From positions 3,368 through 67,367 of IMG/VR virus record IMGVR_UViG_3300022594_000256: a stretch of DNA of 64,000 nucleotides; one strand, written 5' to 3'. This document shows, piece after piece, positions 16,054 through 64,000 of this stretch. Position 1 is the first letter of the stretch. Every line of letters begins with the position of its first letter. The stretch comes from a virus (taxonomy: Duplodnaviria; Heunggongvirae; Uroviricota; Caudoviricetes). The translations under genes were made by a program, and so were the position numbers. The notes under the pieces were generated by a model, which ran no database searches, was not told where the DNA came from, and saw only the letters and a list, made by a program, of their open reading frames with translations.

Positions 16054-16334
16054 TACCAATGCCTTATGACGCCTGCGATTATAAAAAAATTTGTTATAAC
16101 GTATGTTAACACAATTGCAGTCCGAATGCAAGCAATACGGTCCGATTCCTCGTCCGTTTTGCCTGATTTTTCGCCTAATGCTTTAGCCCAAAGTTTCCAA
16201 TACTTATTCTTTATCATTTTGGACTATACCGTACTGCTTGTATAACCAAGTGATAAATGCTTCTATTTCCTTACTTGGGTAAGGATATACTTTGTAAGCA
16301 ATTACAATTCTTTCTAACCAATCTTTGTCGATCA

Positions 16335-40938: not shown

Positions 40939-40958
40939 CTCACTTGTAAATAGTGTCA

Positions 40959-42928: not shown

Positions 42929-42944
42929 ACACCTTCATTACTGG

Positions 42945-48914: not shown

Positions 48915-48954
48915 GAAATATTTAACCTCATTAAGTGCGCATATAAATATTTTC
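48915..48954. promoter_or_regulatory. divergent intergenic spacer with 9-bp inverted repeat AAATATTTA(N19)TAAATATTT
   Basis: sequence aaatatttaacctcattaagtgcgcatataaatattt between the leftward and rightward operons. Confidence 0.3.
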
Positions 48955-49620
48955 ATGCTAACGCCAACTAACTATAAAATAGATCCAACGCTCTTTCAAG
49001 AAGCATTACAGCAGCTTCCCGAGGCTGGTATGAAAACAACCATTAATCAACCCAATGGTGATTTCTTCTACGATCCGTGGATTTTAAAAGAAGAGTACAA
49101 AGGTACTGTTTGGGAAACTTTATATAACAGTTTGCCTGTATTGAAGGGCGAAGCAAGAATTATAATTTTGGAACCTGGGCAATGTTACCAATGCCATGCT
49201 GATATAGATGATAGATATCATTTAACCATATTAGGTGAGAAGTCTTATTTGATAGATTTAGAAACTAACCAAATGCATTTTTTAAATCAAAATGGAATTT
49301 GGTATAACATGGATGCTGGTCAATTACATACAGCGGCTAACTTTGGCAAAGTTGCTAGAGTACAATTAGTAGTTAGGCAATTGCTTAAAAAAAATAATAT
49401 TGAAAATCCAATAAAGGTTACAGTGAAACCTGTATCAAAAGATTTATATCATGCTAGATATTTGTTTGACTATCACATTAGTCCTTGGCTTAATGCAGCA
49501 AATAAAAACGGATACATAAATGATTTTAAGCATGTAAACGGATCAGCAATATTTGAGATAGCGCAGGATAAACTAGACACTCTTAAATTTTTCCTGCCAG
49601 AGGGTTTTGTTGTAGAATGA
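48955..49620 (+). CDS. AspH-like cupin Fe(II)/2OG hydroxylase (paralogue family: 52927, 54498, 61257)
   Basis: CHADIDDRYH (HxD) ... QLHTAANFG (distal His, xNxG). Confidence 0.45.
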   Translation: MLTPTNYKIDPTLFQEALQQLPEAGMKTTINQPNGDFFYDPWILKEEYKGTVWETLYNSLPVLKGEARIIILEPGQCYQCHADIDDRYHLTILGEKSYLIDLETNQMHFLNQNGIWYNMDAGQLHTAANFGKVARVQLVVRQLLKKNNIENPIKVTVKPVSKDLYHARYLFDYHISPWLNAANKNGYINDFKHVNGSAIFEIAQDKLDTLKFFLPEGFVVE

Positions 49621-51164
49621 ACCACGCACTATTTTTTAGCCTAACAGGCAAACGATGGGAACGCATCTTATGGGTACACCGTGTTGCTACATTCCTACGA
49701 ATGAATGAGTGGGACGCAGAGGTTGTAGACTTTACAGCATTTTGGCAACTAGAAGAATTGCAAGAACTAGTGCGTAGCAGAACAACAGACAAGACTGTTA
49801 TGTTTTGTTTTGGCACGGCATTTTTGAATCCATGGAGTCCATACTTAAATGAATTTATTGATTGGCTAAAACAAGAGTATCCAACTATTCCTATTGTAGT
49901 TGGTGGCAACAACGCACTAACAACTCCGGCCAACAGTGTAGACTATTGGGTAGATAGTTACGGGGAAAATGCTGTGCTAGCATTGTGCCAACACCTTATC
50001 GGAACACTAGGCGCACCATTAATGACTGACTCTGCATTCTTTGGCAGCAAGAAGGTTATACGTGGACTACACCATTATCCTTCAGCGCCACTAGACAGCT
50101 ACCTAGTTGATTACGAAACACGTGACTTTATGATGCCATGGGAATGCCCGCAAATTGAAACCGCACGTGGTTGCATGTTTAGCTGTAGTTATTGTAACTT
50201 TCCTATCATTGGGCAAGCTAAAGACGTTAGTGTAAGCAAAGAACAATTCAAACTTCAAATGCAAACAGGCTACGAAAAGTGGGGGATTAAGAATTGGCGT
50301 GTTATGGACGAAACATTTAACGATCGTCCTGAAAAACTGCAAAAGTATGCAGACGCTGTTGATGAGCTAGGATACAATCCTTGGATATGTGGATTTGCTC
50401 GTGGTGACTTGGTTGTTAAACATAAGGAACATTGGGACACTTATATCAGATTAGGCTTCCTTGGACATAGCATGGGTATTGAAACATTTAATCATGCTGC
50501 TGGTAAACTTGTACGCAAGGGTATGGATCCTGACAAACTACAACAAGGGTTATTAGAGTTTCAGGAATATACTGACATACATGCTCCTAAGCGATATAGA
50601 GCAAACATTCAAATGATTTGCGGCATTCCGGGCGAAACTAAAGAATCGTGGCATCAATCATTAGACTGGCTCAATACAAAGTGGACTAGACAAAGCGCCA
50701 GCGCACACATATTAGAAGTACCGGACTACGACGAAACACTTACAAATCAAAGTCGTTTTACTAAGGAACTAGTAAACAACGGACTAATTAAATTAGAAGC
50801 TAGACAAAATCCAGGGTATAATGTAACTAAAGATAGCAGAGGAAATGTTATTTTTAAATCTACTACTCCGCGAGGAGGTGGCGTCGGTAGCACGAGAAAT
50901 GATATTGTTATTTGGCAACACAACACAATGGATTGGTATCAAGCAGAATCTCTAGTACAAGAATTTTACTCACCTAACGGGTTTACTGGACTACGGGGGT
51001 GTAACCCATTCTTATCTGATAGAGTATTTGCTTATTATGAAACAAATTCATATGAAGATATCTATGATTGTAGACTAACAGATATAGATACGTCTGATCA
51101 AAAGTTTAAAGAACAAGTACAAGCGTATATTAATAAAAAATTAAATTGGAATAGCAATGTTTAA
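49617..51164 (+). CDS. B12-binding radical SAM protein
   Basis: N-terminal cobalamin-binding-like region (PIVVGGNNALTTPANSVDYWVDSYGENAVLALCQHL) then CMFSCSYC. Confidence 0.7.
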   Translation: MNHALFFSLTGKRWERILWVHRVATFLRMNEWDAEVVDFTAFWQLEELQELVRSRTTDKTVMFCFGTAFLNPWSPYLNEFIDWLKQEYPTIPIVVGGNNALTTPANSVDYWVDSYGENAVLALCQHLIGTLGAPLMTDSAFFGSKKVIRGLHHYPSAPLDSYLVDYETRDFMMPWECPQIETARGCMFSCSYCNFPIIGQAKDVSVSKEQFKLQMQTGYEKWGIKNWRVMDETFNDRPEKLQKYADAVDELGYNPWICGFARGDLVVKHKEHWDTYIRLGFLGHSMGIETFNHAAGKLVRKGMDPDKLQQGLLEFQEYTDIHAPKRYRANIQMICGIPGETKESWHQSLDWLNTKWTRQSASAHILEVPDYDETLTNQSRFTKELVNNGLIKLEARQNPGYNVTKDSRGNVIFKSTTPRGGGVGSTRNDIVIWQHNTMDWYQAESLVQEFYSPNGFTGLRGCNPFLSDRVFAYYETNSYEDIYDCRLTDIDTSDQKFKEQVQAYINKKLNWNSNV

Positions 51165-52245
51165 ATTCAGCGACCTTAAAGAACTACAGTTAGAAATAAC
51201 TAACAACTGTCAGGCTCGTTGCCCAATGTGCCCAAGAAACATTAACGGTGGATTGGAAAATCCTCTTATTAAAACTACAGAGTGGACACTTGAAGATTTT
51301 AAAATTATAATGAATCCTAAGGTACTGAACCAAATTGAATGTTTTCACTTGTGTGGAAACTTTGGTGATCCTATGATGAATGACGATGTCATTGATATGT
51401 GTCAGTACACTACAGATACAAATCCTAATGTATGTTTACAATTTCATACAAACGGTGGAGCAAGAAAACCAGAGTGGTGGGAAAGATTAGCAAGAGCATT
51501 ACCAAAAAATCATAGAGTTATTTTTGCTATTGACGGATTAGAAGACACTCTTAGTTTATATCGAATAGATACAAAATATGAAACAGTTATAAAAAATGCA
51601 CAAGCGTTTATTAACGCCGGCGGAATAGCTGAGTGGGCTTTTATTAAATTTAAGCATAATGAACATCAAATAGAAGAAGTAAGACAGAGAGCAAAAAATT
51701 TAGGGTTTGCACACGTATCAATTAAAAATAGTTTTAGGTTTTTAACAGACACAAAATTTCCTGTCTTAAAGAAAAATGGATCTCTTGATTATTATTTAGA
51801 AACACCTTCTCAAACAACAATTAAATTAATTGATAAAGAAACAATTAAGAATTGGGATAACACTATGAAGTCTGCAGAAATAGAATGCAGAGCACAAAGT
51901 AGCAGCGCAATTTATATAGATGCTTACAAAGATTTTTATGCTTGCTGTTATTTGGGTACAGTTCCGTTTATGTTTGTTTCCGATGATATAACAAAAGGTA
52001 TACGAGGGAAAATGGTTGAACAGCATCATACCATGGTATCTAAGTTAGGTGAAATTAATACTCTTAAAAGATCAATTGAAGACATTTTAAATTCTAATGA
52101 ATATCAAGAAGTATGGAAAGACATGTGGCATGATAATAAATCTCATATGTGCGTCACCATTTGTGGTAAACATAAGAATTTAGAACAGACTCAATTTTGG
52201 GATCAATGGGAAGAATATACCGAGTTAGACAAGGATAAACAATGA
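51157..52245 (+). CDS. radical SAM protein (family B)
   Basis: LEITNNCQARCPMCPRNINGG; C-terminal Cys pairs. Confidence 0.7.
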   Translation: MFKFSDLKELQLEITNNCQARCPMCPRNINGGLENPLIKTTEWTLEDFKIIMNPKVLNQIECFHLCGNFGDPMMNDDVIDMCQYTTDTNPNVCLQFHTNGGARKPEWWERLARALPKNHRVIFAIDGLEDTLSLYRIDTKYETVIKNAQAFINAGGIAEWAFIKFKHNEHQIEEVRQRAKNLGFAHVSIKNSFRFLTDTKFPVLKKNGSLDYYLETPSQTTIKLIDKETIKNWDNTMKSAEIECRAQSSSAIYIDAYKDFYACCYLGTVPFMFVSDDITKGIRGKMVEQHHTMVSKLGEINTLKRSIEDILNSNEYQEVWKDMWHDNKSHMCVTICGKHKNLEQTQFWDQWEEYTELDKDKQ

Positions 52246-52934
52246 CTGACACACGTAGTTGGAATTACTATTACAAGTTAAACACTAACGGAGTCCCACA
52301 TAGTTCAAACCTGCTGTATACACCCACTGTTAATCCAGAACAGACAGTAATGTGTATGCACTACTGTACAGATCCGGTATATCGCTCTGACGAAGATACA
52401 CAAGTAAATGAAGAATTAGTACAATGGTTTTTTGAAAGAGAAGTTAAGTTCTTAAACAATCTAGCTCATCTTAAAACTACACCTACTGTATATGACGTGG
52501 ATCTTAAAAGTAGAAAAGTTTTTATAGAATGGAACAAGGAAACATTATCACAGATATTGTTCACCCCCGGTAGAAATCTAAATGAGGAACTACCTAACTG
52601 GCAAGAGCAAATTAGAAATTTTTTAATTGCAACTAAAGAAAATAAATTTTGGAAGATGGCACTGTATCCTCACTGTTTTTATATTTCAAAAGACGACGTG
52701 TTAAAGACTATAGATCATTATTCTGTAGTTCCATACGAAGAGCAATTTATTGAAAGAAGAATTATTGAAGGTGTTATAGGTAAGCACGGTGCATATCGTT
52801 TTGATGCATCAACTGATGATAAAGGTTTTATTGACTTTAAGAAGTTCTTTGAAATTACAGTAACAAAACATTTATCTATGACTTGGCCCAATGATATATT
52901 TGCTGATGTGTTTAAAGAGATTTATAATGATTAA
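52242..52934 (+). CDS. hypothetical protein (paralogue of 57940..58626)
   Basis: DLKSRKVFIEWN vs DLDSRKLYLEIDG and overall collinearity. Confidence 0.5.
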   Translation: MTDTRSWNYYYKLNTNGVPHSSNLLYTPTVNPEQTVMCMHYCTDPVYRSDEDTQVNEELVQWFFEREVKFLNNLAHLKTTPTVYDVDLKSRKVFIEWNKETLSQILFTPGRNLNEELPNWQEQIRNFLIATKENKFWKMALYPHCFYISKDDVLKTIDHYSVVPYEEQFIERRIIEGVIGKHGAYRFDASTDDKGFIDFKKFFEITVTKHLSMTWPNDIFADVFKEIYND

Positions 52935-53418
52935 TTGGAATACAGTAATTGATAACTTAACTGACGGTAAGGTTGTTACTGTTGATCCAGCACGTTGGAA
53001 TATGAATAATCCAGAATATGCAGCAATGCTAAACTTATGGAAGCGTAGCAACTTTAATACAGACAGTGTTAAGTGGACAAACTATTATAACACTAAAGAT
53101 ATCGAAACTGAAGTAGCTAAGGAAGTAAGTATTACACCATTGCGTAGTTGGATTAGTTGTGTCGAACCTGGATACATGACTGGATATCATTACGATATTG
53201 ACGACAACGAAAAAGAATATCTTAAATATGGATTATTAAAAAGATATTCGGTGTTTATTAGCGAGCCCAGTGTTGGGCACTTGTTTATTTTAGGTAAAGA
53301 ATACTTTTACAACAGTCCTCAAGGAACAATAGTTAAATGGGGCAATTACAGAGATTGGCATAACGGCATTAATGGCGGACTTGCAAACAAATACATGTTT
53401 CACATAATAGGATATTAA
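52927..53418 (+). CDS. AspH-like cupin hydroxylase paralogue
   Basis: GYHYDIDDNEKEY ... DWHNGINGG; start set to ATG 52927. Confidence 0.4.
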   Translation: MINWNTVIDNLTDGKVVTVDPARWNMNNPEYAAMLNLWKRSNFNTDSVKWTNYYNTKDIETEVAKEVSITPLRSWISCVEPGYMTGYHYDIDDNEKEYLKYGLLKRYSVFISEPSVGHLFILGKEYFYNSPQGTIVKWGNYRDWHNGINGGLANKYMFHIIGY

Positions 53419-53419
53419 A

Positions 53420-54514
53420 ATGTTTTCTTTTGAACAGCTAAACACAATACACGTAGAAATAACCAACAGGTGCCAAGCTAGTTGTCCTATGTGTCCAAGA
53501 AATATCCACGGCGGTATTGACAATCCATCTTTAATTTTAACTGATTGGACTCTTGAACGATTTAAAGATACGTTCACTGAAGAGGTATTGTATCAAGCAA
53601 AGTGCATTAATTTTTGCGGGGACTTTGGTGACCCAATGATTAATTCTGATTTAATAGATATGTGCCGGTATGTTAAGCAAACAAATCCTAGTGTGTTAAT
53701 ACTAATAAGCACTAATGGATCAGCACGTACAACCAAGTGGTGGAAAGAACTTGCAGAAGCTCTACCAGAAAATCATAAAATAATGTTTGCCTTAGATGGA
53801 TTAGAAGATACACATGCGTTACATAGAATCGGAACTGATTTTAATACAGTAATTAAAAATGCAAGCGCCTTCATTAGTGCAGGCGGAAAAGCAGAATGGG
53901 TATTCATTAGATTTAAACATAACGAAACACAAGTCGAAACTGCTAGACAAATGTCAAAGAATCTAGGTTTCCAGAGTTTTAAATTAAAAGACAGCAAACG
54001 CTTATTCTGGGACAAGTATCCAGTACTTGATAGACAAGGAACGGTATCCTACCATATCGAAGCTCCTAGTCAAAGCAATGTTAAAACAATTAGTTTTATT
54101 GATTTAAAAGATTTTAAAAAATGGAAAACTGATGTTAACTGCTGGTCCTTTGATGATAAGGAACTTTACATAGATGCTAACGGGTATCTAATGCCTTGCT
54201 GTATAATTGGATCATTTCTTTACACTAATTACGATGTTGAAGTGTATCGTAAGTATGGAGTCCTAAACTCTAACGGTGTTATTGAAACTGGTAGGGAAAT
54301 TCAATCAGAAGTGTTTTCTATTATTAGAGAACTTGGCGGACTAGATGCTTTAGATTCTAAGCAGCACTCGATTAAAGATATAATGAACGCAGAATCATGG
54401 CAAACATTGTTACACAAGAAATGGGATGAATACAGTTCTTCTGCATGTAAGTTAATTTGCGGAGACGTTTCACCGTTCATGAAAGTCCCTGAGCAAGTCA
54501 ATCGTACATCGTAA
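53420..54514 (+). CDS. radical SAM protein (family B)
   Basis: VEITNRCQASCPMCPRNIHGG. Confidence 0.7.
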   Translation: MFSFEQLNTIHVEITNRCQASCPMCPRNIHGGIDNPSLILTDWTLERFKDTFTEEVLYQAKCINFCGDFGDPMINSDLIDMCRYVKQTNPSVLILISTNGSARTTKWWKELAEALPENHKIMFALDGLEDTHALHRIGTDFNTVIKNASAFISAGGKAEWVFIRFKHNETQVETARQMSKNLGFQSFKLKDSKRLFWDKYPVLDRQGTVSYHIEAPSQSNVKTISFIDLKDFKKWKTDVNCWSFDDKELYIDANGYLMPCCIIGSFLYTNYDVEVYRKYGVLNSNGVIETGREIQSEVFSIIRELGGLDALDSKQHSIKDIMNAESWQTLLHKKWDEYSSSACKLICGDVSPFMKVPEQVNRTS

Positions 54515-55022
54515 TTTGTAAGGTGTACCTTGTGTTGTATCCTATGTTAGCAGGCCCATGCACTATCATAGGATCACTCCATTCAAATAAATCCCCTGCT
54601 TTATAGTTTGCAGCAACTTTATCATCGTAGACAAATACGTGTCCTGGTTCCCAATCTTGTAAGAACATTGTATAGCGCACAGGATTACTAACTTCCGTCA
54701 ACTGTGGATCAATATGCATTGCTTGGAACTCTCCAGGATACAACATAACAAACCACCAATTAACATTAGTTCGTTTTTCAGGAACATCTGGAAGTTGCCA
54801 TTTAAAGTCTTGCATCTCAGCAGACTTGGGATTCATTTGATGAAAGAAGTGTTTGTTATTAGAGTAGCCTGGGCGGGCCATCTCGGTGAACTTTTCTAGT
54901 ATAGCATTACCTTTCCAACGATCTGGTTGCCATACAGGAGTTTTATCACCTTGACAATTAGTAAGGTGCTCCATTATTTTGTATTCTTCAATCCAACTTT
55001 TATAGTTGCCTATGTACTTCAT
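54498..55022 (-). CDS. AspH-like cupin hydroxylase paralogue
   Basis: AMHIDPQL ... IVHGPANIG. Confidence 0.45.
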   Translation of the reverse strand: MKYIGNYKSWIEEYKIMEHLTNCQGDKTPVWQPDRWKGNAILEKFTEMARPGYSNNKHFFHQMNPKSAEMQDFKWQLPDVPEKRTNVNWWFVMLYPGEFQAMHIDPQLTEVSNPVRYTMFLQDWEPGHVFVYDDKVAANYKAGDLFEWSDPMIVHGPANIGYNTRYTLQITMYD

Positions 55023-55825
55023 TAATAGCTGTCCAAATGATCTATTCCTAGTTTCTTACGGAACGCTTCTGTAAACTTGCCATCAATTCGTAAACCGTAG
55101 CTTTGTTCCATGATCCTTTCACCACCATGCCAGTCGACATCATTCCACCACGCAGCACGAGTATTCAAATATGTCTTGTCTTTAGTTTCTGGATCCCACA
55201 AGTAGAAAGCCTTCTTTGTGTTAGGGCGAATGTGTATAAATTCGTTGCGGTGTGGCTTAACTACATTAACACCGTTCTTAGCATCTAAGTCTCGGTGCTC
55301 AAATGGAATACCATCAGCTTCGCAGTGGAAGAATATAACACGCCCTATGTCTTCAAACACAGTACCTACTAGACTTTCAACCCACTTAACTACGTTAGGA
55401 AAGTATGCTGCTTCGTCTGTAAGTTTGCGCGGTGCAGTTCTGTCATCCCACGAACCTTCTTCCCACAAGTAATAATAAATGTATGGATCGTAAGCACCCA
55501 TTGCCATTTTAAGATAGCGAGTAAACTTGTTACGCTCTTGAAAGTTTTTAAAGTCTTTGGGCATTAACTGTAGCCCTGCTTGCTTAATAGGACTATCGTC
55601 AGGCAATTGCTGTAACTCTTGCATTGCTTCGTATATAGGTTTCCAATTAGGACGATAGCTCATATCATCAAATGTAAATCCCGGAGCCATCCATGTGCCT
55701 TCTTTGGCAAACTCTCGTGCTAGAGCGAACCCTGTAAGTATCTCGGGCTGTAGTTGATCAAACTGATCCATATCTAAGTATGGAGTCATATCGTAGTAGG
55801 GTTTATTATTAATCCCGTGCATCAT
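55022..55825 (-). CDS. hypothetical protein
   Basis: start trimmed to ATG 55825 (AAGGA SD) from longer track ORF overlapping upstream radical-SAM gene by 104 nt. Confidence 0.45.
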   Translation of the reverse strand: MMHGINNKPYYDMTPYLDMDQFDQLQPEILTGFALAREFAKEGTWMAPGFTFDDMSYRPNWKPIYEAMQELQQLPDDSPIKQAGLQLMPKDFKNFQERNKFTRYLKMAMGAYDPYIYYYLWEEGSWDDRTAPRKLTDEAAYFPNVVKWVESLVGTVFEDIGRVIFFHCEADGIPFEHRDLDAKNGVNVVKPHRNEFIHIRPNTKKAFYLWDPETKDKTYLNTRAAWWNDVDWHGGERIMEQSYGLRIDGKFTEAFRKKLGIDHLDSY

Positions 55826-56873
55826 ATTTCCTTTGGTACTTTTCAGGTATAGTATCGTACAATGGTAAGTTTTTATTAACAGCACCATCACGCAGTATAA
55901 CTTGATGTACAAGCGGACTTACTGGTTTACCCGGCAACATGTCTGCCCATGATTCAGTTTGGTCCTCTTCGAGATCAATTGTACGCACATCGGGCCACTG
56001 GATTATCTTAACTAGAATTCCGTTAATACGCATTGGATAGTGAGCTCTAATTGCATAGCCAGGAGCATACTCGTATGTCCAACCCTTCTTATCACATACA
56101 GCTTTTACTAAGTCTACTAGCTCTGAAAGGTATATCTTTTCTTCTCCAGGATGGCGTCCGATATCTGTTCCTACTCTTACTCTATAATTGTGCGGACTAA
56201 GTGTTCGTCCAAACTCTTGTATCTCTTCTAAACAGTATTCTAATTGGGCAATGGTTTCAAGAGTATAACTGACATTCTTTATTTTCATGTCTAACTTCAT
56301 ACAGTTGTCGATACCTTCCATTTGTTTCTTTCTAACTGTATGTCCTTGGTAGTCAGGATGGTTTAATCCTATAGTCCAAAACAAGTTAGGAATGTCTTTA
56401 AACTGTTGAGCATACTCATAATCAGATAGGTACACACCATTTGTCAAAATCATTATACTACGTGGCTTGCCTGGTAGTGCTTGTATAGCACGGCATAGCT
56501 CTGGTAAGTCTTTTCTAGTAGTTGGCTCAGCACCCATTAGGGCAACAGCGTAGCCATCGTCTTCCCATGCTCGTATAATATCTAGTATGTTTTCTATACT
56601 AGGGTCTTTGCTCATGTTATCTGGTATTTGATAGCAGTGAGGGCAATTTAAATTACATCTGTTAGTGATATCTAAACAGTATGTTTTGTTTGTTGGACGA
56701 TCGTACGTGTAGTTAAGATAAAAATTAGCATTAGGTTCTACTAAGTGTTCACTCTCGCCATGCCATTTACATTTCTTTGACAACCATATTTTTCCATCTC
56801 TTTCAAACAACGTAGCAGGAATATGTCTATAGCAGTGTTCGCATATAGATGTTGTATCGTGTATTTTATTCAT
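55809..56873 (-). CDS. radical SAM protein (family D: CNLxCPHC)
   Basis: LDITNRCNLNCPHCYQIPDN. Confidence 0.7.
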   Translation of the reverse strand: MNKIHDTTSICEHCYRHIPATLFERDGKIWLSKKCKWHGESEHLVEPNANFYLNYTYDRPTNKTYCLDITNRCNLNCPHCYQIPDNMSKDPSIENILDIIRAWEDDGYAVALMGAEPTTRKDLPELCRAIQALPGKPRSIMILTNGVYLSDYEYAQQFKDIPNLFWTIGLNHPDYQGHTVRKKQMEGIDNCMKLDMKIKNVSYTLETIAQLEYCLEEIQEFGRTLSPHNYRVRVGTDIGRHPGEEKIYLSELVDLVKAVCDKKGWTYEYAPGYAIRAHYPMRINGILVKIIQWPDVRTIDLEEDQTESWADMLPGKPVSPLVHQVILRDGAVNKNLPLYDTIPEKYQRKYDARD

Positions 56874-57900
56874 GTCTATATTTTTCAGGTACTGTATCGT
56901 ACAACATCTGTCCTTTGTTAACTGCTTGATCTCTTAGTATAACTTGATGCAGTAATGGGCTCATTGGCTTACCTGGAACAATGCTAGCCCAGGATTCACT
57001 TTGTACTTCTTCTAAGTCGATAGTACGCACATCACACCACTTGATAAACTTGTGTTCAATACCGTTTATACGAACAGCATAGTGTGTGCGATTACCGCCT
57101 GTGTAATCAGGTTCCCATGTCCACCCGTTGTCTAAACAAAACTTTTCAGCAACTGCAACTAATTCCGATAGGTACAGTTCTTTAAATTCGCCCTCAGGTA
57201 CTCGTCCAATTTCAACACCTAACTGTATCCTAGCATTGATACCAAACTTTTGTACTTCGTGCATTACATCAGTTAACTGTTCTAAATTGGCTAGTGTATA
57301 AGTTAATGTTTTTACATCTAGTCCTAATTTAATACAGTTTTCTAATCCTTCCATTTGCTTAGTACGAATCTGTCCGCCATTGTAATCAGGATGGTTAAGT
57401 CCAAAGGTCCATTTAAGATTTGGTATACCTTGGAATCGTTTTACATAATCCCATTTAGCCAAATACACGCCATTAGTAACAATTATAACATTTCTAGTCT
57501 TAATGGGCAACGCATGTATTGCCAAAACTAAATCGGGCAAGTCTTTACGCACAGTAGGTTCAGCACCAACAAGGCTAACTGGTAATCCGTTATCGGGCCA
57601 ACTCATAACTTCTGACAATAGGTAATCAATACTAGGATCTTTACTATTGTTATCAGGCATTTGGTAACAATGCGGGCAATCTAAGTTACAACGATTAGTG
57701 ATGTCTAACCAATATGAACTTGGCTTACGTCTTTGATATTGTTGACTTTTATAAAAGTCTGTGTTAATATCTAGTATTGCTTCTTGATATCCGTGCTTAG
57801 GGCAAGTTTTGCCTAGCATCATTTTACCATCCTTTTCGAATCGTTCTGCTGGAATATGACGATAGCATGTTTCGCATAAGGATGTTGTTTGGGTTAGCAT
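56866..57900 (-). CDS. radical SAM protein (family D), tandem paralogue
   Basis: LDITNRCNLDCPHCYQMPDN; strong collinear similarity to 55809..56873. Confidence 0.7.
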   Translation of the reverse strand: MLTQTTSLCETCYRHIPAERFEKDGKMMLGKTCPKHGYQEAILDINTDFYKSQQYQRRKPSSYWLDITNRCNLDCPHCYQMPDNNSKDPSIDYLLSEVMSWPDNGLPVSLVGAEPTVRKDLPDLVLAIHALPIKTRNVIIVTNGVYLAKWDYVKRFQGIPNLKWTFGLNHPDYNGGQIRTKQMEGLENCIKLGLDVKTLTYTLANLEQLTDVMHEVQKFGINARIQLGVEIGRVPEGEFKELYLSELVAVAEKFCLDNGWTWEPDYTGGNRTHYAVRINGIEHKFIKWCDVRTIDLEEVQSESWASIVPGKPMSPLLHQVILRDQAVNKGQMLYDTVPEKYRHE

Positions 57901-57939
57901 ATTATTTTCTTAGTCGCAAATTTATAGATAATTAATTGT

Positions 57940-58626
57940 ATGAAATACGAATATTACTACAATGACGTTCCAGGCCAAGGGCTTTGTCGGAACAATCTTA
58001 TTTACACTAGTTTAATCAGCACCGATAAAAAAGTTTTTGTTCAATGGTACCATAATGATACAGAATATCATAAAGGAAAGAACCAAGTTGTAGACCCAGC
58101 CAAAATGGAAGAAAAATGGCTACGTGAAGTAAACTACTTGACACAAATGCGAAACAAATATCCAGAGCTTGTTCCAACAATTAAAAACATAGATTTGGAT
58201 AGCAGAAAATTATATTTAGAAATAGATGGTCCTGACTTTTGGGAACAGGCTGGTTGTAACATGGCAAACTATGATCAAGTAGTTCCCGACTGGCAAGAGC
58301 AGATGCTTAATATTATACAAGCTCACAAAAGTTTAGGATTGCACAAATACAGTATGCACCCTAGCAGTTATTTTGTAGTAGATGGTAAATTAAAAAGTAT
58401 CAATTACTTTTTCACTTATCGTGATATCGAACCTATGATTAGCATTAAGGATGTTGAAAGTCATATCTATATAACAAGACAGGATGAAATGCGTAAGCAT
58501 CTAGACAGTTTAGGAATTAAATGGGACGAACCACAACCGTGGGACGTAATGGATCAATTATGCTGGGCAAGTTTTAGTACAAACTACCCATCGGAATTTA
58601 TAGAGCGTGTTAAATGTTTGAAATAA
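57940..58626 (+). CDS. hypothetical protein (paralogue of 52242..52934)
   Basis: 228-aa ORF, ATG start; 39-nt AT-rich divergent spacer upstream. Confidence 0.5.
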   Translation: MKYEYYYNDVPGQGLCRNNLIYTSLISTDKKVFVQWYHNDTEYHKGKNQVVDPAKMEEKWLREVNYLTQMRNKYPELVPTIKNIDLDSRKLYLEIDGPDFWEQAGCNMANYDQVVPDWQEQMLNIIQAHKSLGLHKYSMHPSSYFVVDGKLKSINYFFTYRDIEPMISIKDVESHIYITRQDEMRKHLDSLGIKWDEPQPWDVMDQLCWASFSTNYPSEFIERVKCLK

Positions 58627-59165
58627 AAAAGTGGACACCTGACTTAGACTTAACAGAGTTTTATGCTACTGCCAAGTCTAAAGGTTTTGAAAATAATGCT
58701 AGCCAGCGGATGCTAGTGGATAGTTTAGCAAAAGAAAAACATTGGGCTGTTTGGATTTTGTATTTTTATGGAAAAGCCGTAGGTAGTGTTGCTGCACATA
58801 GTTTTCCTGAGATGGGAGAAGATGCTTATCGTATTGCTGCACGTACTTGTGTATTTTCGGACCACATACCTATTCCAAGTATTCGCACACGTAATCAAAT
58901 AGTTACACACCAACACGTTACTAGCCAGTTCCTAATTCCTACATGTATTGAATGGACTCCACCGTGGGCTAGCTTATATATTACTAGCAATGAAAACAGT
59001 GTAGGAACACAACGCCTAGTGCATAATATATTTGGTCCTGCAATGGAAGCTACAGGACAGATGAAACGCATTAAAGAAATAGACTATCGCGGAACTAAAC
59101 AAACAGTATGGGAACTGTACGCTAATAGATTTCTAGAAGAACTGGAAAAGCATCCTCGATGGTAA
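58614..59165 (+). CDS. hypothetical protein
   Basis: 183-aa ORF coupled on both sides. Confidence 0.45.
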   Translation: MFEIKKWTPDLDLTEFYATAKSKGFENNASQRMLVDSLAKEKHWAVWILYFYGKAVGSVAAHSFPEMGEDAYRIAARTCVFSDHIPIPSIRTRNQIVTHQHVTSQFLIPTCIEWTPPWASLYITSNENSVGTQRLVHNIFGPAMEATGQMKRIKEIDYRGTKQTVWELYANRFLEELEKHPRW

Positions 59166-60592
59166 ACAAGTTTAAAACTTCTCATAAAAAATCTATAGTA
59201 TTTTGTCTACACGATATTATAGATTTTTGTGAAAGCGGATATGCTAGAGAAGTCTGCGTTAACCTCACAGACTTTTTAATACATCGTTTTGACTTGTATG
59301 GTTATGATATCCTTATTAGCAAGGATGAAGACGCATTACTACAAACAGCTAGTGAAGAAGGTTATAGCCATGCTGTAGTTATATCAGCTGGAACTAGTTT
59401 AAGATTGTCGGACAGACTTTTTCCTGCTATTGAAGAAACGTGTAAGAAAGATTTCTTTATAGCAGGGCACATACTTGATAGAGCTAACCATAGTCATTAC
59501 GGAAATGCTTGTTTCGAACTACATCAACAATTCTATATTGTAAATCTAGAACAGTACAAAGATGCAGGCATGCCTGTCATTGGAGAAGAAGAATGGGGAG
59601 CGTATGAGCAAATTGCTCCTATTCGTAGTCAGGAATTTTTGTACAATGATCCGGAAATACCTGTGTGGATGAAACAGGGTACAGAACTTAAAACATACGA
59701 TGTTAGACTGCACGGGTGGAATATACTGCGTGTTGCCTTAGAGCAAGACAAAACATTAATAACGCTTGATCAAAGTGTACGTACAAGTAAGAAGTATCTA
59801 TATTACGAATACGATCATGTGTTCTTAAAAACTCTAGCAGAAATAAAACATTACCAATTCTTTGCTACTAACTTCTTTGCCGGATGGAACTCTGATACAT
59901 TAAGAAGCCAATTAGATTTTACTGGCCCAGTTGAACAATATGCTACTGTTGGTATAGGCTTCAATTGGATTAAGAATTTAGAACTTGTAGGATTTACTAA
60001 AGACACTAAAGTTATTTTTACAGACATCAACTATAACTGTTTGATGTTTATGAAGAAACTAGTAGAAGAGTGGGATGGAAAAGACTACGCAGACTTTTAC
60101 TGGAAGCATAAACCTATGTTGCCCAACAACAGTCCTTATATTAGTGAAGAGTATAAAGAGCAGATAGACAGTAAGTGGAAAGAATTTTTAACAACAGTTG
60201 ATGATTGGGAAAGCCTGTGGGATAGTGTTAAGCAACTGAACTATGACTATGTGCTTATAGACTATACGGCATCGTTTAATTTTGATTGGTTAGAAGCTGG
60301 ACGTAAGACTATATTAAATCTCAGTAACTTATATAACCACGGACCCTTTATTGCTATGAACAGTTTAAAGTATCGCATATACTGCGAGAACAAACTACTT
60401 CAAATGATTAAAGACAAAGATCCTAAGATTACTTTATTATTAACAGCTAGGGCAGCAGATGGTTTCTGGAAAAATAATCCTAAAGAATACTTAGGCACAG
60501 TTGATAAATTTAACTATACCGATTTACAAGATTTAAAGATACCTAGCTGGCATGAAACAGATTGGCAATATGAAAAATTTAAATTATATTAA
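59159..60592 (+). CDS. hypothetical protein
   Basis: 477-aa ORF. Confidence 0.5.
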   Translation: MVNKFKTSHKKSIVFCLHDIIDFCESGYAREVCVNLTDFLIHRFDLYGYDILISKDEDALLQTASEEGYSHAVVISAGTSLRLSDRLFPAIEETCKKDFFIAGHILDRANHSHYGNACFELHQQFYIVNLEQYKDAGMPVIGEEEWGAYEQIAPIRSQEFLYNDPEIPVWMKQGTELKTYDVRLHGWNILRVALEQDKTLITLDQSVRTSKKYLYYEYDHVFLKTLAEIKHYQFFATNFFAGWNSDTLRSQLDFTGPVEQYATVGIGFNWIKNLELVGFTKDTKVIFTDINYNCLMFMKKLVEEWDGKDYADFYWKHKPMLPNNSPYISEEYKEQIDSKWKEFLTTVDDWESLWDSVKQLNYDYVLIDYTASFNFDWLEAGRKTILNLSNLYNHGPFIAMNSLKYRIYCENKLLQMIKDKDPKITLLLTARAADGFWKNNPKEYLGTVDKFNYTDLQDLKIPSWHETDWQYEKFKLY

Positions 60593-61256
60593 CATTGGAA
60601 ATATACCAATTGGTATATACAAAGACGGGCCCGTTGGTGTAGGCATAAGCGGTGGTGCAGACAGTGCTGTATTGCTTTATATTCTAATGAGTAACATTGA
60701 CAAACCTATACACATTTATAACATGTGGTCATCTAGCAGAAATTATTCATTTGCCAAATCAGTAGATGCTGTAATTAAAACATGTAGTAGACTTACAGGC
60801 AACACTAATTATGTTGTACATAAAGTTCAAGTTGAGCCTAAGGAAACTAACGAGTTCTTTTTTAATATGCTTACCGATGCACTAAACAAAAAAGAAGTCG
60901 ATATAGTTTATATGGCTGTTACTAATTTTCCTCCCAAAGACGTTTACTTAGAATTTGATCAGCAACAAGAAGACTGGCACAATCGCTTTAGAAGCGATGA
61001 AGTTGAACATCCGTTATTTGGATTAACTATCTCTGGAGAGCTAGACAAGCCACTAGTACTGGATGAGCGTGTTTATGTACCTCTTAGAAACTACAACAAA
61101 AAAGCAGTAGTCACACTATATCAAGAGTTAAATCTTGAAACAAACTTGTTGCCCGTAACAAGAAGTTGTGAAGACGACGATCACATAGAATCGCATTGTA
61201 TGAAATGCTGGTGGTGTCAAGAACGTATATGGGCATTTGGTCATATCGGAGAATAA
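60552..61256 (+). CDS. PP-loop ATP pyrophosphatase, QueC-like
   Basis: P-loop VGVGISGGADSAVLLYIL (SGGxDS); C-terminal Cx9Cx2Cx2C (CEDDDHIESHCMKCWWC) like QueC zinc site; 234 aa. Confidence 0.5.
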   Translation: MKQIGNMKNLNYINIGNIPIGIYKDGPVGVGISGGADSAVLLYILMSNIDKPIHIYNMWSSSRNYSFAKSVDAVIKTCSRLTGNTNYVVHKVQVEPKETNEFFFNMLTDALNKKEVDIVYMAVTNFPPKDVYLEFDQQQEDWHNRFRSDEVEHPLFGLTISGELDKPLVLDERVYVPLRNYNKKAVVTLYQELNLETNLLPVTRSCEDDDHIESHCMKCWWCQERIWAFGHIGE

Positions 61257-61904
61257 ATGAAAGAGTACTATGAATCTGATGCCCGTTATCTAAAGTTAGA
61301 TATAGAACTGCCATACAAAGAAATGTGTGCAGAAGCATTTGCATTACTTGATAAGTTCACACCTCACAGGAGTGACGACTATGCACATGATGGTTGGGAA
61401 AGTTTAACTATACATGGGTTAGGTTGGGATAAGCACGAAGGGTATAAAGCCTACGGTTATGCTAAAGGTAAAGATGCTAGTAAAGATATGCACTGGACAG
61501 AAATAGCAGATGCTTGTCCTATAACAACAAAATGGCTCAAAGAAGTGTTTCCGTGCAACAAGTATGGTAGAGTTAGATTTATGTTGCTCAAAGCAGGCGG
61601 ACATATTTCTATGCACAATGATTCGAGCCTAAAACTAATTGAGAATATTAATATTGCTCTTAACAATCCAAAAGGGTGTGAATGGATATGGGGTGATAGT
61701 GAAAAATTAATTATGGAGCCGGGTGGTGTATATGCTATGAACTTACATTACCATCATATGCTAATTAATGAAAGCAACGAAGATCGTATGCACATGATCA
61801 TTGCTAGACACGACGCTACTGATGAGTGGAAAGAATTAATCGATCAAGCTGCCCTAGCAAGAGGCATTAAAGGCAAATACGTTGTTATAGACGAGTTGCC
61901 TTAA
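61257..61904 (+). CDS. AspH-like cupin hydroxylase paralogue
   Basis: GGHISMHNDSS ... NLHYHHMLINESN. Confidence 0.45.
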   Translation: MKEYYESDARYLKLDIELPYKEMCAEAFALLDKFTPHRSDDYAHDGWESLTIHGLGWDKHEGYKAYGYAKGKDASKDMHWTEIADACPITTKWLKEVFPCNKYGRVRFMLLKAGGHISMHNDSSLKLIENINIALNNPKGCEWIWGDSEKLIMEPGGVYAMNLHYHHMLINESNEDRMHMIIARHDATDEWKELIDQAALARGIKGKYVVIDELP

Positions 61905-62755
61905 CTGTAATCCTGATCAGGAAAATCAATTGCTATTCTATGTAGCAAGCGTTCTTCAATTCGTTCAAACGGCCAACGTCTGTGAACACCTAACCATTGT
62001 TCTGCTATAACTACGTCTCCGTTTTCCCAGTCGTGATGATAACAATACTTGTCTTGTATAGTATGTTCCCAAATAGGCTTTATTAGTTCAATAGATTCCT
62101 CTCTAGTCATACCTGCAAAACGATCTAACTGTAGGAATGAAAGGTACAAGCCAGTCTTGCCAGCGTTGTTTGTATACACTAGAGGAGGTTGAAACGATTC
62201 AACTACAATACCGTCATATTCTAACTTACCATTTTGTCCGTTCTCATCTACGATAGCACCGCCCATGTAGATACATTTTAATTGTTTAAGTTGTTCTTTA
62301 GTAGCTTCGTCTAGGTCATTGTAGGATAGTATGTTATTGTTCCAACTGGTACGTGAACCCTTTGATCCCTTAACAGAGTATAACCAAATAATAGGGCAAC
62401 GATCTCTATCCTGTGGCATGTTACAATGCCATACCATTTCGTCAGAGTGTCCTGCAATACCAGGCTTGCCATTGTCGTTTAGCTCGCCAGTAACTCTAGC
62501 AATAATACCTTCTGGATCAACAGCCCAATTTTTAAAATTTTCTTCTTCTTTAGATTTAAACAGTGGCTTTGGACGCTTAAACATCTTAGCAATTTTAAGT
62601 TCGTCATCAACAGTTAAAAACTGATTTTTAAAAACTACACAGGTATTACTAGCAATTAGTCTTGCTATTTCGTTTATATCATCTTGTGTAGCTGTATTAA
62701 AATTAAAGTCATCAACTAATACAGTCCAACCGTTTTCATGTAAATGATATTTCAT
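61901..62755 (-). CDS. TauD/TfdA-like Fe(II)/2OG dioxygenase
   Basis: GHSDEMVWH (HxD) and C-terminal HHDWENGDVVIAEQWLGVHRRW. Confidence 0.6.
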   Translation of the reverse strand: MKYHLHENGWTVLVDDFNFNTATQDDINEIARLIASNTCVVFKNQFLTVDDELKIAKMFKRPKPLFKSKEEENFKNWAVDPEGIIARVTGELNDNGKPGIAGHSDEMVWHCNMPQDRDRCPIIWLYSVKGSKGSRTSWNNNILSYNDLDEATKEQLKQLKCIYMGGAIVDENGQNGKLEYDGIVVESFQPPLVYTNNAGKTGLYLSFLQLDRFAGMTREESIELIKPIWEHTIQDKYCYHHDWENGDVVIAEQWLGVHRRWPFERIEERLLHRIAIDFPDQDYS

Positions 62756-63618
62756 ATTTGTGTATAATCCTGATCTGGGAAATCAAACGCTATACGATGT
62801 AGGGTTCTTTTTTCTATTTCAGCAAACGGCCAACGTTTATGTATGCCCAACCATTGCTCTGCTATAACTACATCTCCGTCATCCCAATCGTGATGATAGC
62901 AGTATCTGTCTTGCGTTGTGTGCTCTGTTAGCCAAGCAATTATATTTTTGTTTTCTTCTTCTGACAATCCTACAAACCCACTTATTTGTAAAAACGAAAA
63001 GAAGAACCCTTTCTTACCTGCAATATTTGTCATTACAAGACTAGGATTGTATGCATCTATTGTATCCGGAGCATCATCTCCAAGATCCATAGCTTCCTTG
63101 CACCAGTTAGCCATTACAAGTTTTAAGTCCTCTAAAGGCTTACGTCTTTCTTCATCTAACTCGTTATAAGATAATATATTGTTATTCCAAGTAGTTCTAG
63201 AACCCTTAGTTCCTTTAACACCATATAACCATATGAGAGGCTTTCTATTAGGATCGTGCGGATCATTGCAGTGCCAAACCATTTCGTCTGTCCAGCCTGC
63301 TAGTCCTGTACGCCCATTAGCATCTTTCTCGCCGCTAACACGTAGAGCTATTTTATCCGAACCTGGAACTTCTGCTCCTTGATAGCAATCGTGATCATAT
63401 GTACCCGGAACATCGATATGAAACTGCTGCGGGTTCTTAAACATTTTAGCAATTCTAACTTCGTCTTCTACAGTTAGGTTTTGTTTCTTTGCTACCACTA
63501 GTGTATTTGTTGCTAGCAATTTTGCAATATCATTAATATCTTCTTGCGTAGCATCTTTAAGGTTGACGTCGTCAAGTATAACAGTCCAACCGTTTTCGTG
63601 TAATTTATAGTTTATCAT
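62752..63618 (-). CDS. TauD/TfdA-like Fe(II)/2OG dioxygenase, tandem paralogue
   Basis: GWTDEMVWH; HHDWDDGDVVIAEQWLGIHKRW; ATGA coupling. Confidence 0.6.
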   Translation of the reverse strand: MINYKLHENGWTVILDDVNLKDATQEDINDIAKLLATNTLVVAKKQNLTVEDEVRIAKMFKNPQQFHIDVPGTYDHDCYQGAEVPGSDKIALRVSGEKDANGRTGLAGWTDEMVWHCNDPHDPNRKPLIWLYGVKGTKGSRTTWNNNILSYNELDEERRKPLEDLKLVMANWCKEAMDLGDDAPDTIDAYNPSLVMTNIAGKKGFFFSFLQISGFVGLSEEENKNIIAWLTEHTTQDRYCYHHDWDDGDVVIAEQWLGIHKRWPFAEIEKRTLHRIAFDFPDQDYTQI

Positions 63619-64000
63619 TTTGTATAGTCTTGTTCAGGGTAATCTACTGTTGCTCTGTGCATAACCCTAATGTCCATTTTATCAAACGCCCATCTTTTAT
63701 GCAGTCCATTCCACTGATCAGCAATAATTAGATCGCCATCTTCCCAGTCGTGATGGTAAACATACTTATCGCTGAATATGTGGTGACTTAAAATTTGTTT
63801 AAGTTTTCCGGTTTGAATATGAGAAATCTCTACAAACTTACCTAACTGAAACGGAGCAAAGTACATGCTATATTGATTAGTAATATTTTTACGAACTAGG
63901 CGTGGAGTCCAATTGTCATTATATCGCACACCTTCGTAGTCTGGTGCCCACGGTGCTTCTATGTTTCCGTAAATACAATGTAAATTTTCTACAGTACTCT
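63615..64000 (-). CDS. TauD/TfdA-like dioxygenase, third tandem paralogue (partial; N-terminus beyond window)
   Basis: C-terminus YHHDWEDGDLIIADQWNGLHKRW...DYPEQDYTK; frame open to window edge. Confidence 0.5.
   Translation of the reverse strand, partial: STVENLHCIYGNIEAPWAPDYEGVRYNDNWTPRLVRKNITNQYSMYFAPFQLGKFVEISHIQTGKLKQILSHHIFSDKYVYHHDWEDGDLIIADQWNGLHKRWAFDKMDIRVMHRATVDYPEQDYTK

Follow-up and report, generated by a model that had tools for sequence, protein, structure and literature searches.

The H-x-A/G halogenases SyrB2, WelO5 and BesD, together with the two-His enzyme AspH, are catalytic without a carboxylate ligand, a small residue opening a site for halide or water. Human AspH has a TPR-repeat region, and its substrates are EGF domains. 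In the part of the AspH literature on which we draw, its iron is bound through two His residues alone. Proteusin/polytheonamide RiPP clusters are compact and bring together a radical-SAM epimerase, B12 C-methyltransferases and an Fe/2OG hydroxylase. The caprazamycin pathway employs Cpz10, an alpha-KG-dependent beta-hydroxylase (PDB 7V4F/7V4P; PMC9814697).

Annotation has already revealed multi-copy 2-oxoglutarate (2OG) oxygenases in T4-like aquatic phages, and cyanomyophages carry many 2OG-Fe(II) oxygenases along with one TauD gene and two asparaginyl beta-hydroxylases (Sullivan et al., 2010; PMC3037559). The locus described here, from a large, uncultured, freshwater, T4-like phage, resembles the host recognition clusters of pelagimyophages and cyanomyophages (PMC7029224; PMC3037559) in forming an island beside fibre and baseplate genes of a T4-like aquatic phage. 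One example of such an island, genes 72-84 of Pelagibacter phage Mosig (EXVC030M), holds radical-SAM cassettes, AspH-like genes, a TauD gene (W-H-S-N) and an 'aminotransferase', and genes in our window (the whole 64,000-nucleotide stretch analyzed) are directly homologous to them. The present island differs in being much larger (no fewer than 14 radical-SAM genes within the window, plus seven to nine oxygenases), in keeping a fixed order over about 40 contigs, and in its additional HMPTM-like, B12 radical-SAM and three uncharacterised families. No glycosyltransferases were seen in it, and the phage appears far bigger, as judged from exact-match proteins on contigs of up to 345 kb.

Oxygenase genes of the window

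Seven genes of the stretch appear to code for genuine Fe(II)/2-oxoglutarate oxygenase superfamily proteins, four of the Cpz10/AspH type and three of the TauD/TfdA type (Table 1). The original prediction had listed seven hydroxylases, and all seven ORFs lie where it placed them, 54498, 61901, 62752 and 63615 being the low-end coordinates of minus-strand genes. The ORFs labelled 48913 and 52891 are the 48955 and 52927 genes, whose genuine starts are 48955 and 52927 (homologues of 221 and 163 aa). Every HxD...H(x)NxG string quoted in that prediction is present in the translations, and because the motifs are conserved across each family they are not chance matches. "Hydroxylase" is a predicted activity of the H-x-D copies, read from sequence.

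Table 1. Oxygenase genes and neighbouring tailoring genes
Coordinates	Strand	Feature	Basis
26562..27137	-	Additional 2OG-Fe(II) oxygenase, PF13759 2OG-FeII_Oxy_5 / TIGR02466, outside 48955-64000	
40953..48079	.	Six radical-SAM genes plus one further ORF (42825)	Pfam
40953, 44917, 45934		Radical-SAM family A	Paralogue families by phmmer
41906		SPASM radical-SAM family B	
43442, 46826		N-terminal-twitch radical-SAM family C	
48063..48956	-	PLP-enzyme-like protein, H-x-D-x-A-W and S-x-S-K motifs	Alignment A8
48955..49620	+	Cpz10-like stand-alone putative Fe(II)/2OG oxygenase, 221 aa; H81-x-D83, H125, N129, R135	
49617..54514	+	B12-binding radical-SAM 49617, SPASM radical-SAM 51157 and 53420, kinase-fold-like 52242; interleaved with 52927 cupin	Pfam
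52927..53418	+	Small cupin-type 2OG oxygenase candidate, 163 aa; H88-x-D90, H145, N149, K155	
54498..55022	-	Small DSBH putative Fe(II)/2OG oxygenase, 174 aa; H103-x-D105, H155, N159, R165	
55022..55789	-	255-aa family, possible further cupin oxygenase; invariant E-H165-x-D167, H186, W-H221-G-G, R234	Alignment A4
55809..57900	-	Tandem radical-SAM gene pair; zinc ribbon of HMPTM type at N-terminus (Tes/TrsS/MJ0619-like)	
57940..61256	+	Kinase-fold-like paralogue 57940, 183-aa family 58614, 477-aa family 59159, PP-loop ATPase with QueC-like C-terminus 60552	
61257..61904	+	AspH-family (PF05118) putative oxygenase, 215 aa; H120-x-D122, H167, N171, R177	
61901..62755	-	TauD/TfdA-family paralogue 1, 284 aa; H110-x-N112...H258, T136 and R269/R273 kept	
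62752..63618	-	TauD/TfdA-family paralogue 2, 288 aa, also W-H-C-N	
63615..64000	-	TauD/TfdA-family paralogue 3, C-terminal 127-128 codons within window	

Each of the four stand-alone DSBH proteins has a complete H-x-D...H, with Asn at +4 and Arg or Lys at +10 from the distal His, and the double-stranded beta-helix (cupin) fold is recovered. The +10 residue (R135 in 48955, K155 in 52927, R165 in 54498, R177 in 61257) matches Cpz10 R170 and is the predicted ligand of the 2OG C5-carboxylate. A profile of 27 homologues of 48955 matches Cpz10 (PDB 7v4f, E 1.3e-12), aligning the metal and 2OG residues H115/D117/H160/R170 of that enzyme, and the five residues listed in Table 1 are invariant in this family (ORF 48913, n = 27 sequences). 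The 48955 protein has 1886 homologues, on contigs of up to 357 kb. The family differs from Cpz10 in its low identity and in a Gln at the position of Cpz10 H172. Moreover, a caprazamycin-type cluster context is lacking. The phage TauD-like genes have no specific match to UMP dioxygenases, and the searches do not identify the PLP-like protein as a transaldolase.

The AspH-like label given to all four stands in part. The 61257 protein passes Pfam PF05118 (Asp_Arg_Hydrox; E 3.2e-12, 47 bits, cutoff 22.6), its five residues in Table 1 are retained in at least 95% of 32 homologues, and its gene adjoins TauD genes in 38 loci. The 48955 protein falls under the 22.6-bit gathering threshold (E 0.012, 15.9 bits) and is tied instead to Cpz10. 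Neither 52927, by itself, nor 54498 was matched in the Pfam search; PF05118 does match 17 of the 85 members of the 54498 family (best 2.3e-7; mean identity 25%), in which H103/D105/H155 are at least 90% retained and N159 is invariant. The 52927 protein shows weak paralogy to 54498 (phmmer 1e-5), and its H88/D90/H145/N149/K155 are retained in at least 97% of 121 homologues (74-85% identity to 52927, which is included in alignment A2; ORF 52891). Orthology of the four to the two-His, TPR-type animal AspH was considered and rejected, because all have H-x-D and lack the TPR region or any extra domain at 163-221 aa.

All three tandem TauD-like genes pass the 27-bit gathering threshold of Pfam PF02668, as had been expected of them, with E-values of 4e-24 (86.4 bits) for 61901, 3.4e-22 (80.0 bits) for 62752 and 2.8e-9 (37.7 bits) for the 63615 fragment. 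Like members of the TauD/TfdA family (TfdA 5BKE, RdpA/SdpA, TauD 1GQW, AtsK), which they match over their full length, they have W-H-x-(D), a Thr about 26 residues on, the distal His and the H-R Arg in register. PDB TfdA is matched by 61901 at 7e-7 with a single sequence and 8e-12 with a profile. The C-terminal block said to be common to the three is present, with the correction that 62752 reads YHHDWDDGD rather than YHHDWE(N/D)GD. The 63615 reading frame stays open as far as base 64000, where the end of the window truncates it; on a contig with 100% identity to positions 53001-64000 the gene is complete and codes for a 279-aa protein with W-H-V-D...H...R (L001:9165-10004). Paralogues 1 and 2 share 54% identity and fall in separate orthologue lineages; they are old duplicates, each with its own orthologues. 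Exact copies of the 62752 protein occur on at least 24 contigs.

Seven is a minimum count, and the number is possibly nine. The 26562 protein matches Pfam PF13759 (E 7.9e-20) and NCBIfam TIGR02466 (66.5 bits, cutoff 62.5). The 55022 family, found in 42 related loci and often multicopy, aligns in register with the small-cupin family at an hhalign probability of 3%; it had no match in PDB or Pfam, and its single-sequence AF2 model (pLDDT 34) was unusable.

The conserved cassette and its proposed scaffold

The oxygenase genes are not a loose collection but, as originally claimed, are embedded in an island, whose gene order is common to about 40 related T4-like viral contigs (compared over loci L001-L070). 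This order runs TauD(n), AspH-like, PP-loop ATPase, three uncharacterised families, two HMPTM/Tes-like radical-SAM genes, small cupins, B12 radical-SAM, Cpz10-like and PLP-like, with SPASM/twitch radical-SAM enzymes and two kinase-fold-like proteins also inside it, and it holds though TauD identities drop to 40-60%. TauD occurs in 77 loci, rSAM_D in 41, the small cupin in 40, AspH in 38, and the families at 58614 and 59159 in 40 and 36, respectively. Synteny of the 57940..61256 genes with the oxygenases extends over 36-41 loci, except for the PP-loop gene (19 loci). The tandem pair at 55809..57900 (Pfam PF23545 and PF04055, with weak NCBIfam Tes/TrsS matches) recurs in 41 related loci and forms the core of the cassette.

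Among the remaining genes, the 43442 protein matches NF033640 N_Twi_rSAM at 407 bits (cutoff 170), and the 49617..54514 group includes a weak NCBIfam PhpK-like match. The kinase-fold-like profile (A6) matches protein kinases at E 4e-4, the HRD Asp not being conserved. The 48063 protein is a homologue of the Mosig 'putative aminotransferase' Mosig_00079 (phmmer 7e-9); a PDB profile search with its family returned Thr aldolase alone, at E about 1.6, and the PLP-like assignment is not proven. For five cassette families the searches run assigned no function.

A reduced cassette adjoins tail-fibre genes in cultured phage Mosig, and shares with the present island SPASM radical-SAM (5e-19), PLP-like (7e-9), TauD (1e-23) and AspH-like (4e-9) proteins. 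The present island lies next to a gp9/10-like gene, a collagen-repeat fibre gene and a 3432-aa ORF.

On balance, we favor the view that the seven oxygenases carry out the O2-dependent tailoring in a single multi-enzyme modification cassette that is conserved and borne by phages. The enzymes would act one after another on a single scaffold; hydroxylation or oxidation of C-H bonds would fall to the cupins, methylation or cross-linking to the radical-SAM enzymes. The original prediction of multiple hydroxylations on one product stands as an inference: synteny over about 40 loci favors one shared pathway, and what the conserved order shows is co-inheritance, which is no proof of a common substrate. 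Radical-SAM enzymes are O2-sensitive and 2OG oxygenases require O2, and therefore the two enzyme sets need not share a cell state.

A ribosomal peptide is a less likely scaffold than a low-molecular-weight metabolite (nucleoside-, sugar- or lipid-like) or a glycoconjugate of the envelope or virion, because the block leaves no room for a precursor and small molecules are the typical substrates of TauD-family and Cpz10-type enzymes. Specifically, no intergenic gap from 40953 to 64000 exceeds 39 bp, so this block holds no precursor-peptide gene, and over these 23 kb no ORF of precursor size lies beside the maturase-like genes. For the 48955 protein the nearest relative of solved structure is Cpz10, whose hydroxylation substrate is an aminoacyl-nucleoside (PMC9814697). 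Like proteusin clusters, the cassette combines several radical-SAM, B12 radical-SAM and 2OG enzymes, but the leader protease and LanM/NHLP element were not found in it, nor were a RiPP recognition element or transporter by Pfam and NCBIfam.

These observations make it rather unlikely that hypermodification by the cassette is aimed at a protein or peptide, RiPP-like or belonging to the virion, with cupins hydroxylating side chains in the manner of AspH and SPASM/B12 radical-SAM enzymes cross-linking, epimerising or C-methylating. The substrate would then be a tail fibre, another structural protein or a peptide encoded elsewhere. A protein substrate of this kind is possible since modification of peptides or proteins is likewise characteristic of SPASM/twitch, B12 radical-SAM and AspH-type enzymes; the AspH family, in the portion of its literature used here, classically hydroxylates protein Asp/Asn. 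The baseplate and fibre neighbourhood corresponds to the 'host recognition cluster' described in pelagimyophages and cyanomyophages (PMC7029224), and an Mtd_N/PTL fibre gene lies just past the window end. Several radical-SAM genes find their best NCBIfam matches among peptide maturases and RiPP C-methyltransferases (20118 against TIGR03975, 2e-33), yet every such match is far under its cutoff.

TauD/TfdA paralogues with Asn at the metal position

The facial triad H-x-D/E...H, as judged from sequence, is intact in the four cupins and in the third TauD copy, the only one of the three with a canonical H-x-D...H. In 61901 and 62752, which both read W-H-C-N, Asn112 takes the place of Asp. The original prediction had counted these two among its hydroxylases and had itself named loss of the metal-binding triad as grounds against that assignment; because the carboxylate is missing, they cannot simply be called hydroxylases.

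Three independent HMMER alignments place Asn112 in the metal-binding Asp column of TfdA/RdpA, a column that is D/E in sister paralogues. The residue is invariant in the 61901 family (n = 19 sequences). This departure from the TauD/TfdA pattern, seen in two of the three copies here, extends to 99 of 129 phage homologues (77%), among them Mosig and Prochlorococcus phage P-HM2, and persists down to 23-26% identity. The predicted 2OG-binding residues T136 and R269/R273 are retained, with H258, in essentially all full-length phage homologues, and both His, the Thr and both Arg are invariant in the N-type proteins. We infer from this conservation that the two paralogues are functional but non-canonical. 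A non-exhaustive literature search found no characterised TauD/TfdA member with Asn replacing the metal Asp/Glu.

Like the H-x-A/G halogenases, these proteins lose the carboxylate and keep both His and the 2OG residues, but they have instead an isosteric Asn, itself able to ligate or to form hydrogen bonds. The Asn amide oxygen could serve as a neutral iron ligand; alternatively, a substrate or anion ligand could fill the freed coordination site. With ligation altered, the chemistry may therefore differ from simple hydroxylation.

Mutagenesis of TauD, FIH and prolyl hydroxylases indicates that Asp-to-Asn replacement usually abolishes activity, and the H-x-N copies could therefore be inactive. 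They would then be catalytically dead pseudo-enzymes serving as substrate-binding or scaffolding partners of the adjacent canonical H-x-D paralogue, in keeping with the oligomeric state of TauD-family enzymes. We regard this as unlikely, given that many loci hold N-type copies only (10 kb flank examined), with no second TauD match found in the Mosig and P-HM2 records. In addition, a dead scaffold would not need an invariant His/Thr/Arg set, and the N and D/E states interchange several times in a rough NJ tree.

Other possible roles and the meaning of the cassette

For cyanomyophages, Sullivan et al. (2010; PMC3037559) proposed 2OG modulation or DNA repair. By extension, the oxygenases here might be independent auxiliary metabolic genes for host 2-oxoglutarate/succinate modulation, sulfur or nitrogen scavenging, or DNA repair, a reading that accords with the variable TauD copy number (1 to 4 per locus) and with the unrelated PF13759 oxygenase elsewhere in the window. 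It is nonetheless improbable, as gene order with the radical-SAM and uncharacterised families is kept over deep divergence, neighbouring genes form operon-like runs with overlaps of 4-8 bp, the seven include no AlkB-like or PF13759-type member, and each family is under strong purifying selection on distinct substrate-side residues.

Synthesis of a nucleotide or base modification destined for the DNA of the phage or for tRNA, such as a 7-deazapurine- or pterin-derived hypermodification, is suggested by the partly QueC-like PP-loop ATPase (60552), a QueD/PTPS-family gene (16335-16883, 4e-27), the pterin methyltransferase-family zinc ribbon (PF23545) of two radical-SAM genes, weak matches of radical-SAM family A to QueE, viperin and MoaA-like proteins and the uridine-derived substrate of Cpz10 (PMC9814697), but there is little to recommend it when the PP-loop gene is in only 19 of about 40 cassettes, the QueD gene lies 24 kb from the island, QueE and QueC scores are all far under cutoffs, and DpdA/TGT transglycosylase, FolE and a clear QueE were not found among the scanned window ORFs.

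The noteworthy parts of this locus are the conserved cassette and the H-x-N clade. The block of tailoring genes probably modifies one molecule, partly by non-standard chemistry. As a tentative extension, we propose that W-H-x-N...H TauD proteins may constitute a large clade of active Fe/2OG enzymes confined essentially to phages, in which the iron site is either 2-His-1-amide or two His completed by a ligand from the substrate. In concert with over 10 radical-SAM enzymes and the four Cpz10-type cupins, they might build a so far undescribed hypermodified metabolite or surface decoration during infection by widespread large freshwater and marine T4-like phages.

Active sites of the oxygenase genes

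The seven oxygenase open reading frames named in the original prediction are all present, and the motifs quoted for them are found in the translations. Genes 48955 and 52927 begin at true start codons, since their homologues are 221 and 163 amino acids long, respectively. The block YHHDWE(N/D)GD proposed as common to the TauD-like genes has one slip, gene 62752 reading YHHDWDDGD. The interpretation of all seven as hydroxylases acting on one product is partly supported: the family assignments stand, but 61901 and 62752 lack the canonical facial triad, having Asn in place of the carboxylate, and the single product is a hypothesis. Five of the seven have complete active-site motifs; family membership and conserved gene order are likewise established.

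All three tandem genes belong to the TauD/TfdA family by Pfam and PDB searches. When the profile is aligned with TfdA, with a 2,4-D dioxygenase and with RdpA, the phage W-H-C-N falls exactly on W-H-S/T-D, a register indicating that the metal-binding carboxylate has been replaced by Asn in 61901 and 62752. This Asn is invariant in a 19-sequence alignment, as are H110, T136, H258, R269 and R273. The third paralogue, 63615, has W-H-V-D. Its reading frame meets no in-frame stop before base 64000, and we rejected a truncated pseudogene because the gene is merely cut by the window end and encodes 279 amino acids on an identical contig.

A scan of IMG/VR yielded 129 TauD-like ORFs from 77 loci, of which 99 are H-x-N, 23 H-x-D and five H-x-E, and many loci carry N-type copies exclusively. 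Distant TauD homologues in two cultured phages, Pelagibacter phage Mosig and Prochlorococcus phage P-HM2, likewise read W-H-S-N. The missing carboxylate could mark the H-x-N copies as dead pseudo-enzymes. However, essentially all full-length copies among the 129 ORFs retain the Thr, distal His and Arg residues, and in a rough neighbour-joining tree, built without support values, the N-type is basal, whereas the D-type is split over three or more separate clusters and the E-type forms a single one. Dominance, retained residues and tree placement argue that Asn is a selected state rather than decay, and we consider the pseudo-enzyme explanation unlikely. Asn may serve as an iron ligand, free a coordination site, or mark a non-catalytic role. 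The dominant phage TauD type carries Asn at a position that is Asp or Glu in all textbook members, and a non-exhaustive literature search found no described precedent for a natural Asn-for-Asp variant in 2OG oxygenases.

Among the four small oxygenases, 61257 passes Pfam PF05118 (E 3e-12), and a PDB search with its single sequence gave no match. The 48955 sequence alone is sub-threshold against PF05118 (E 0.012), and a 27-homologue profile of its family matches the crystal structure of Cpz10 (E 1.3e-12). Cpz10 is an alpha-KG-dependent beta-hydroxylase of caprazamycin biosynthesis with published ligands H115/D117/H160, 2OG-binding R170 and also H123 (PMC9814697). In the same order, these residues align with the invariant H81/D83/H125/R135/H89 of the 48955 family. 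The 52927 product is a weak paralogue of 54498, and its H88/D90/H145/N149/K155 recur in 97% or more of the 121 homologues. All four small cupins share the Cpz10 spacing, in which the distal His is followed by Asn at +4 and Arg/Lys at +10, so that the most fitting description is Cpz10-type stand-alone oxygenases within the AspH family. Animal AspH is reported to use a two-His site, and the phage cupins are not its orthologues.

Conservation among the oxygenases is by far the highest in the 52927 cupin, with 120 cluster representatives among the matches listed being 71-85% identical, compared with only about 50-60% identity for the adjoining TauD genes across the same phage group. This conservation suggests a more constrained role.

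Two further genes bear on the oxygenase count. An eighth 2OG-Fe(II) oxygenase (26562) is of a type common in cyanophages. The 55022 family occurs in 42 loci, often as two or three copies upstream of the TauD genes, and one paralogue lies at 4975-5754 of L001, the contig identical to the window's end. Searches of this family against PDB and Pfam gave no match, its alignment to the small cupins by hhalign is in register with a probability of only 3%, and a single-sequence AlphaFold model was unusable (pLDDT 34); 55022 therefore remains a candidate cupin.

A conserved gene cassette in T4-like phages

In one widespread clade, the oxygenase and radical-SAM genes are not randomly assembled but make up a fixed cassette of about 16 genes. 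Gene order is maintained in about 40 viral contigs, even where TauD identity has dropped to 40-60%. It runs TauD (one to four copies), AspH-like (61257), PP-loop ATPase (absent in some), unk59159, unk58614, kinase-fold-like (57940), two HMPTM/Tes-like radical-SAM genes, unk55022, a small cupin, a SPASM radical-SAM gene (absent in some), a second small cupin, kinase-fold-like (52242), a B12 radical-SAM gene, Cpz10-like and PLP-like. PDB and Pfam searches with the unk59159 and unk58614 families yielded no signal. The PLP assignment of 48063 is based on motifs and a homologue annotated as an aminotransferase, its PDB profile match being non-significant. The 52242 and 57940 products are paralogues (phmmer 2e-16); the profile of their family has a weak match to the catalytic domains of protein kinases (CIPK24, E 4e-4). 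Neither the HRD Asp nor the DFG motif is conserved, and Pfam searches with family members gave no backing, so we refrain from calling these proteins kinases; they may be pseudokinase-like scaffolds.

A reduced relative of the cassette adjoins the tail-fibre genes of phage Mosig, where the SPASM radical-SAM gene, an 'aminotransferase', an H-x-N TauD and two AspH-like genes are directly homologous to window genes. Radical-SAM cassettes and AspH genes are on record from the pelagimyophage 'host recognition cluster' (PMC7029224), as are multi-copy 2OG oxygenases, asparaginyl hydroxylases and TauD from cyanomyophages (PMC3037559). Several 2OG oxygenases in an island of an aquatic T4-like phage are thus already known as a class; such oxygenases and radical-SAM cassettes have been listed for 15 years, with a function assigned to none. 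What is new here is the cassette in its fixed order, together with the H-x-N clade that dominates among the phage TauD genes.

Genomic setting and neighbouring genes

The window derives from a T4-like tailed phage. PHROG matches include tail-fibre and structural proteins, an ATP-dependent DNA ligase and UvdE. Three genes at one end presumably encode baseplate or fibre components, placing the island beside host-recognition genes. The contig 100% identical over the window's last 11 kb runs on into rIIB and an adjoining 724-aa gene, probably rIIA. Past window base 64454, in L001:1-9164, the next genes of the island are an unknown one of 231 aa, a radical-SAM gene of 504 aa and three further unknown genes, among them a 55022-family paralogue; this stretch also holds an Mtd_N/PTL-trimer fibre-like gene, an AAA_33 kinase, rIIB and the 724-aa gene.

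Selected features of the window
Feature	Position	Strand	Basis or remark
Collagen-repeat fibre, 791 aa	353-2728	-	
gp9/10-N-domain protein	2759-3640	-	
3432-aa ORF	3640-13938	-	
UvdE UV-damage endonuclease	15034-16131	-	E 4e-39
QueD/6-pyruvoyl-tetrahydropterin synthase family	16335-16883	-	Pfam E 4e-27; adjoins UvdE
Second radical-SAM cluster	20118-25538	-	set apart from main island
NF033640 member	24249-25538	-	
Eighth 2OG-Fe(II) oxygenase	26562-27137	-	PF13759 2OG-FeII_Oxy_5, E 8e-20; TIGR02466; P-H-R-H-E...L-E-H
ATP-dependent DNA ligase	28097-29419	-	PHROG 114, 4e-91
ClpP-family protease	30243-30878	-	E 5e-62
Metallophosphoesterase	35933-36787	-	
NF033640 member	43442-44920	+	407 bits
NF033640 member	46826-48079	-	
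Kinase-fold-like	52242-52934	+	
Cupin, 163 aa	52927-53418	+	
Candidate cupin oxygenase, 255-aa family	55022-55789	-	invariant E-H-x-D, E-F-x-H, W-H-G-G, R
Kinase-fold-like	57940-58626	+	

Proteins identical to those of the window are present in many freshwater metagenomes, on contigs of up to about 345 kb. A DNA-level search of 48900-64000 against cultured phages and tblastn of 61257 and 48955 against phages gave no match, and a genome-contig search matched a single MAG contig, giving no pointer to the host. The closest cultured relatives of the DNA ligase are SPO1-like Bacillus phages, at about 35% identity.

The second radical-SAM cluster comprises a B12-binding radical-SAM gene of 672 aa, an unknown gene of 336 aa and a pair of radical-SAM genes of the N-terminal-twitch/SPASM type. 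The 672-aa protein best matches a RiPP C-methyltransferase family (2e-33), under that family's cutoff. Members of NCBIfam NF033640 ('twitch domain-containing radical SAM protein') have the unusual arrangement of an auxiliary-cluster domain N-terminal of the radical-SAM core, and in other viral contigs (L072 and L074) up to four tandem copies flank the TauD genes.

A probable pathway and its likely substrate

The cassette probably encodes one modification pathway acting on a common scaffold. In it, the cupins would oxidise C-H bonds in O2-dependent steps, and methylations or C-C/C-X couplings would fall to the radical-SAM enzymes. We favour a small molecule or glycoconjugate as substrate because the block leaves no room for a precursor gene, because TauD-family enzymes and Cpz10 use small molecules, and because PP-loop and PLP-type enzymes suit metabolite chemistry. 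Between 40,953 and the end of the window, no gap between genes exceeds 39 bp, and a large share of the genes there encode radical-SAM enzymes, in five paralogue families. A protein or peptide substrate would have to be encoded elsewhere; this main rival has perhaps one chance in four. The QueD gene, a QueC-like PP-loop gene (60552) and pterin-methylase-type radical-SAM genes hint at 7-deazapurine or pterin chemistry, and the same two genes with the pterin-methylase-type zinc ribbons speak for a route to nucleotide or DNA modification, which we nonetheless regard as improbable. Equally doubtful are independent metabolic oxygenases, each acting separately.

The fixed cassette of about 16 genes offers a defined unit for heterologous expression and product search. 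The H-x-N question is directly testable because the cultured phages Mosig and P-HM2 carry the same variant. If these proteins are inactive, they constitute a conserved pseudo-enzyme family, itself in need of explanation. Activity would instead extend the range of iron ligands known for 2OG oxygenases past the halogenase and AspH exceptions already described.
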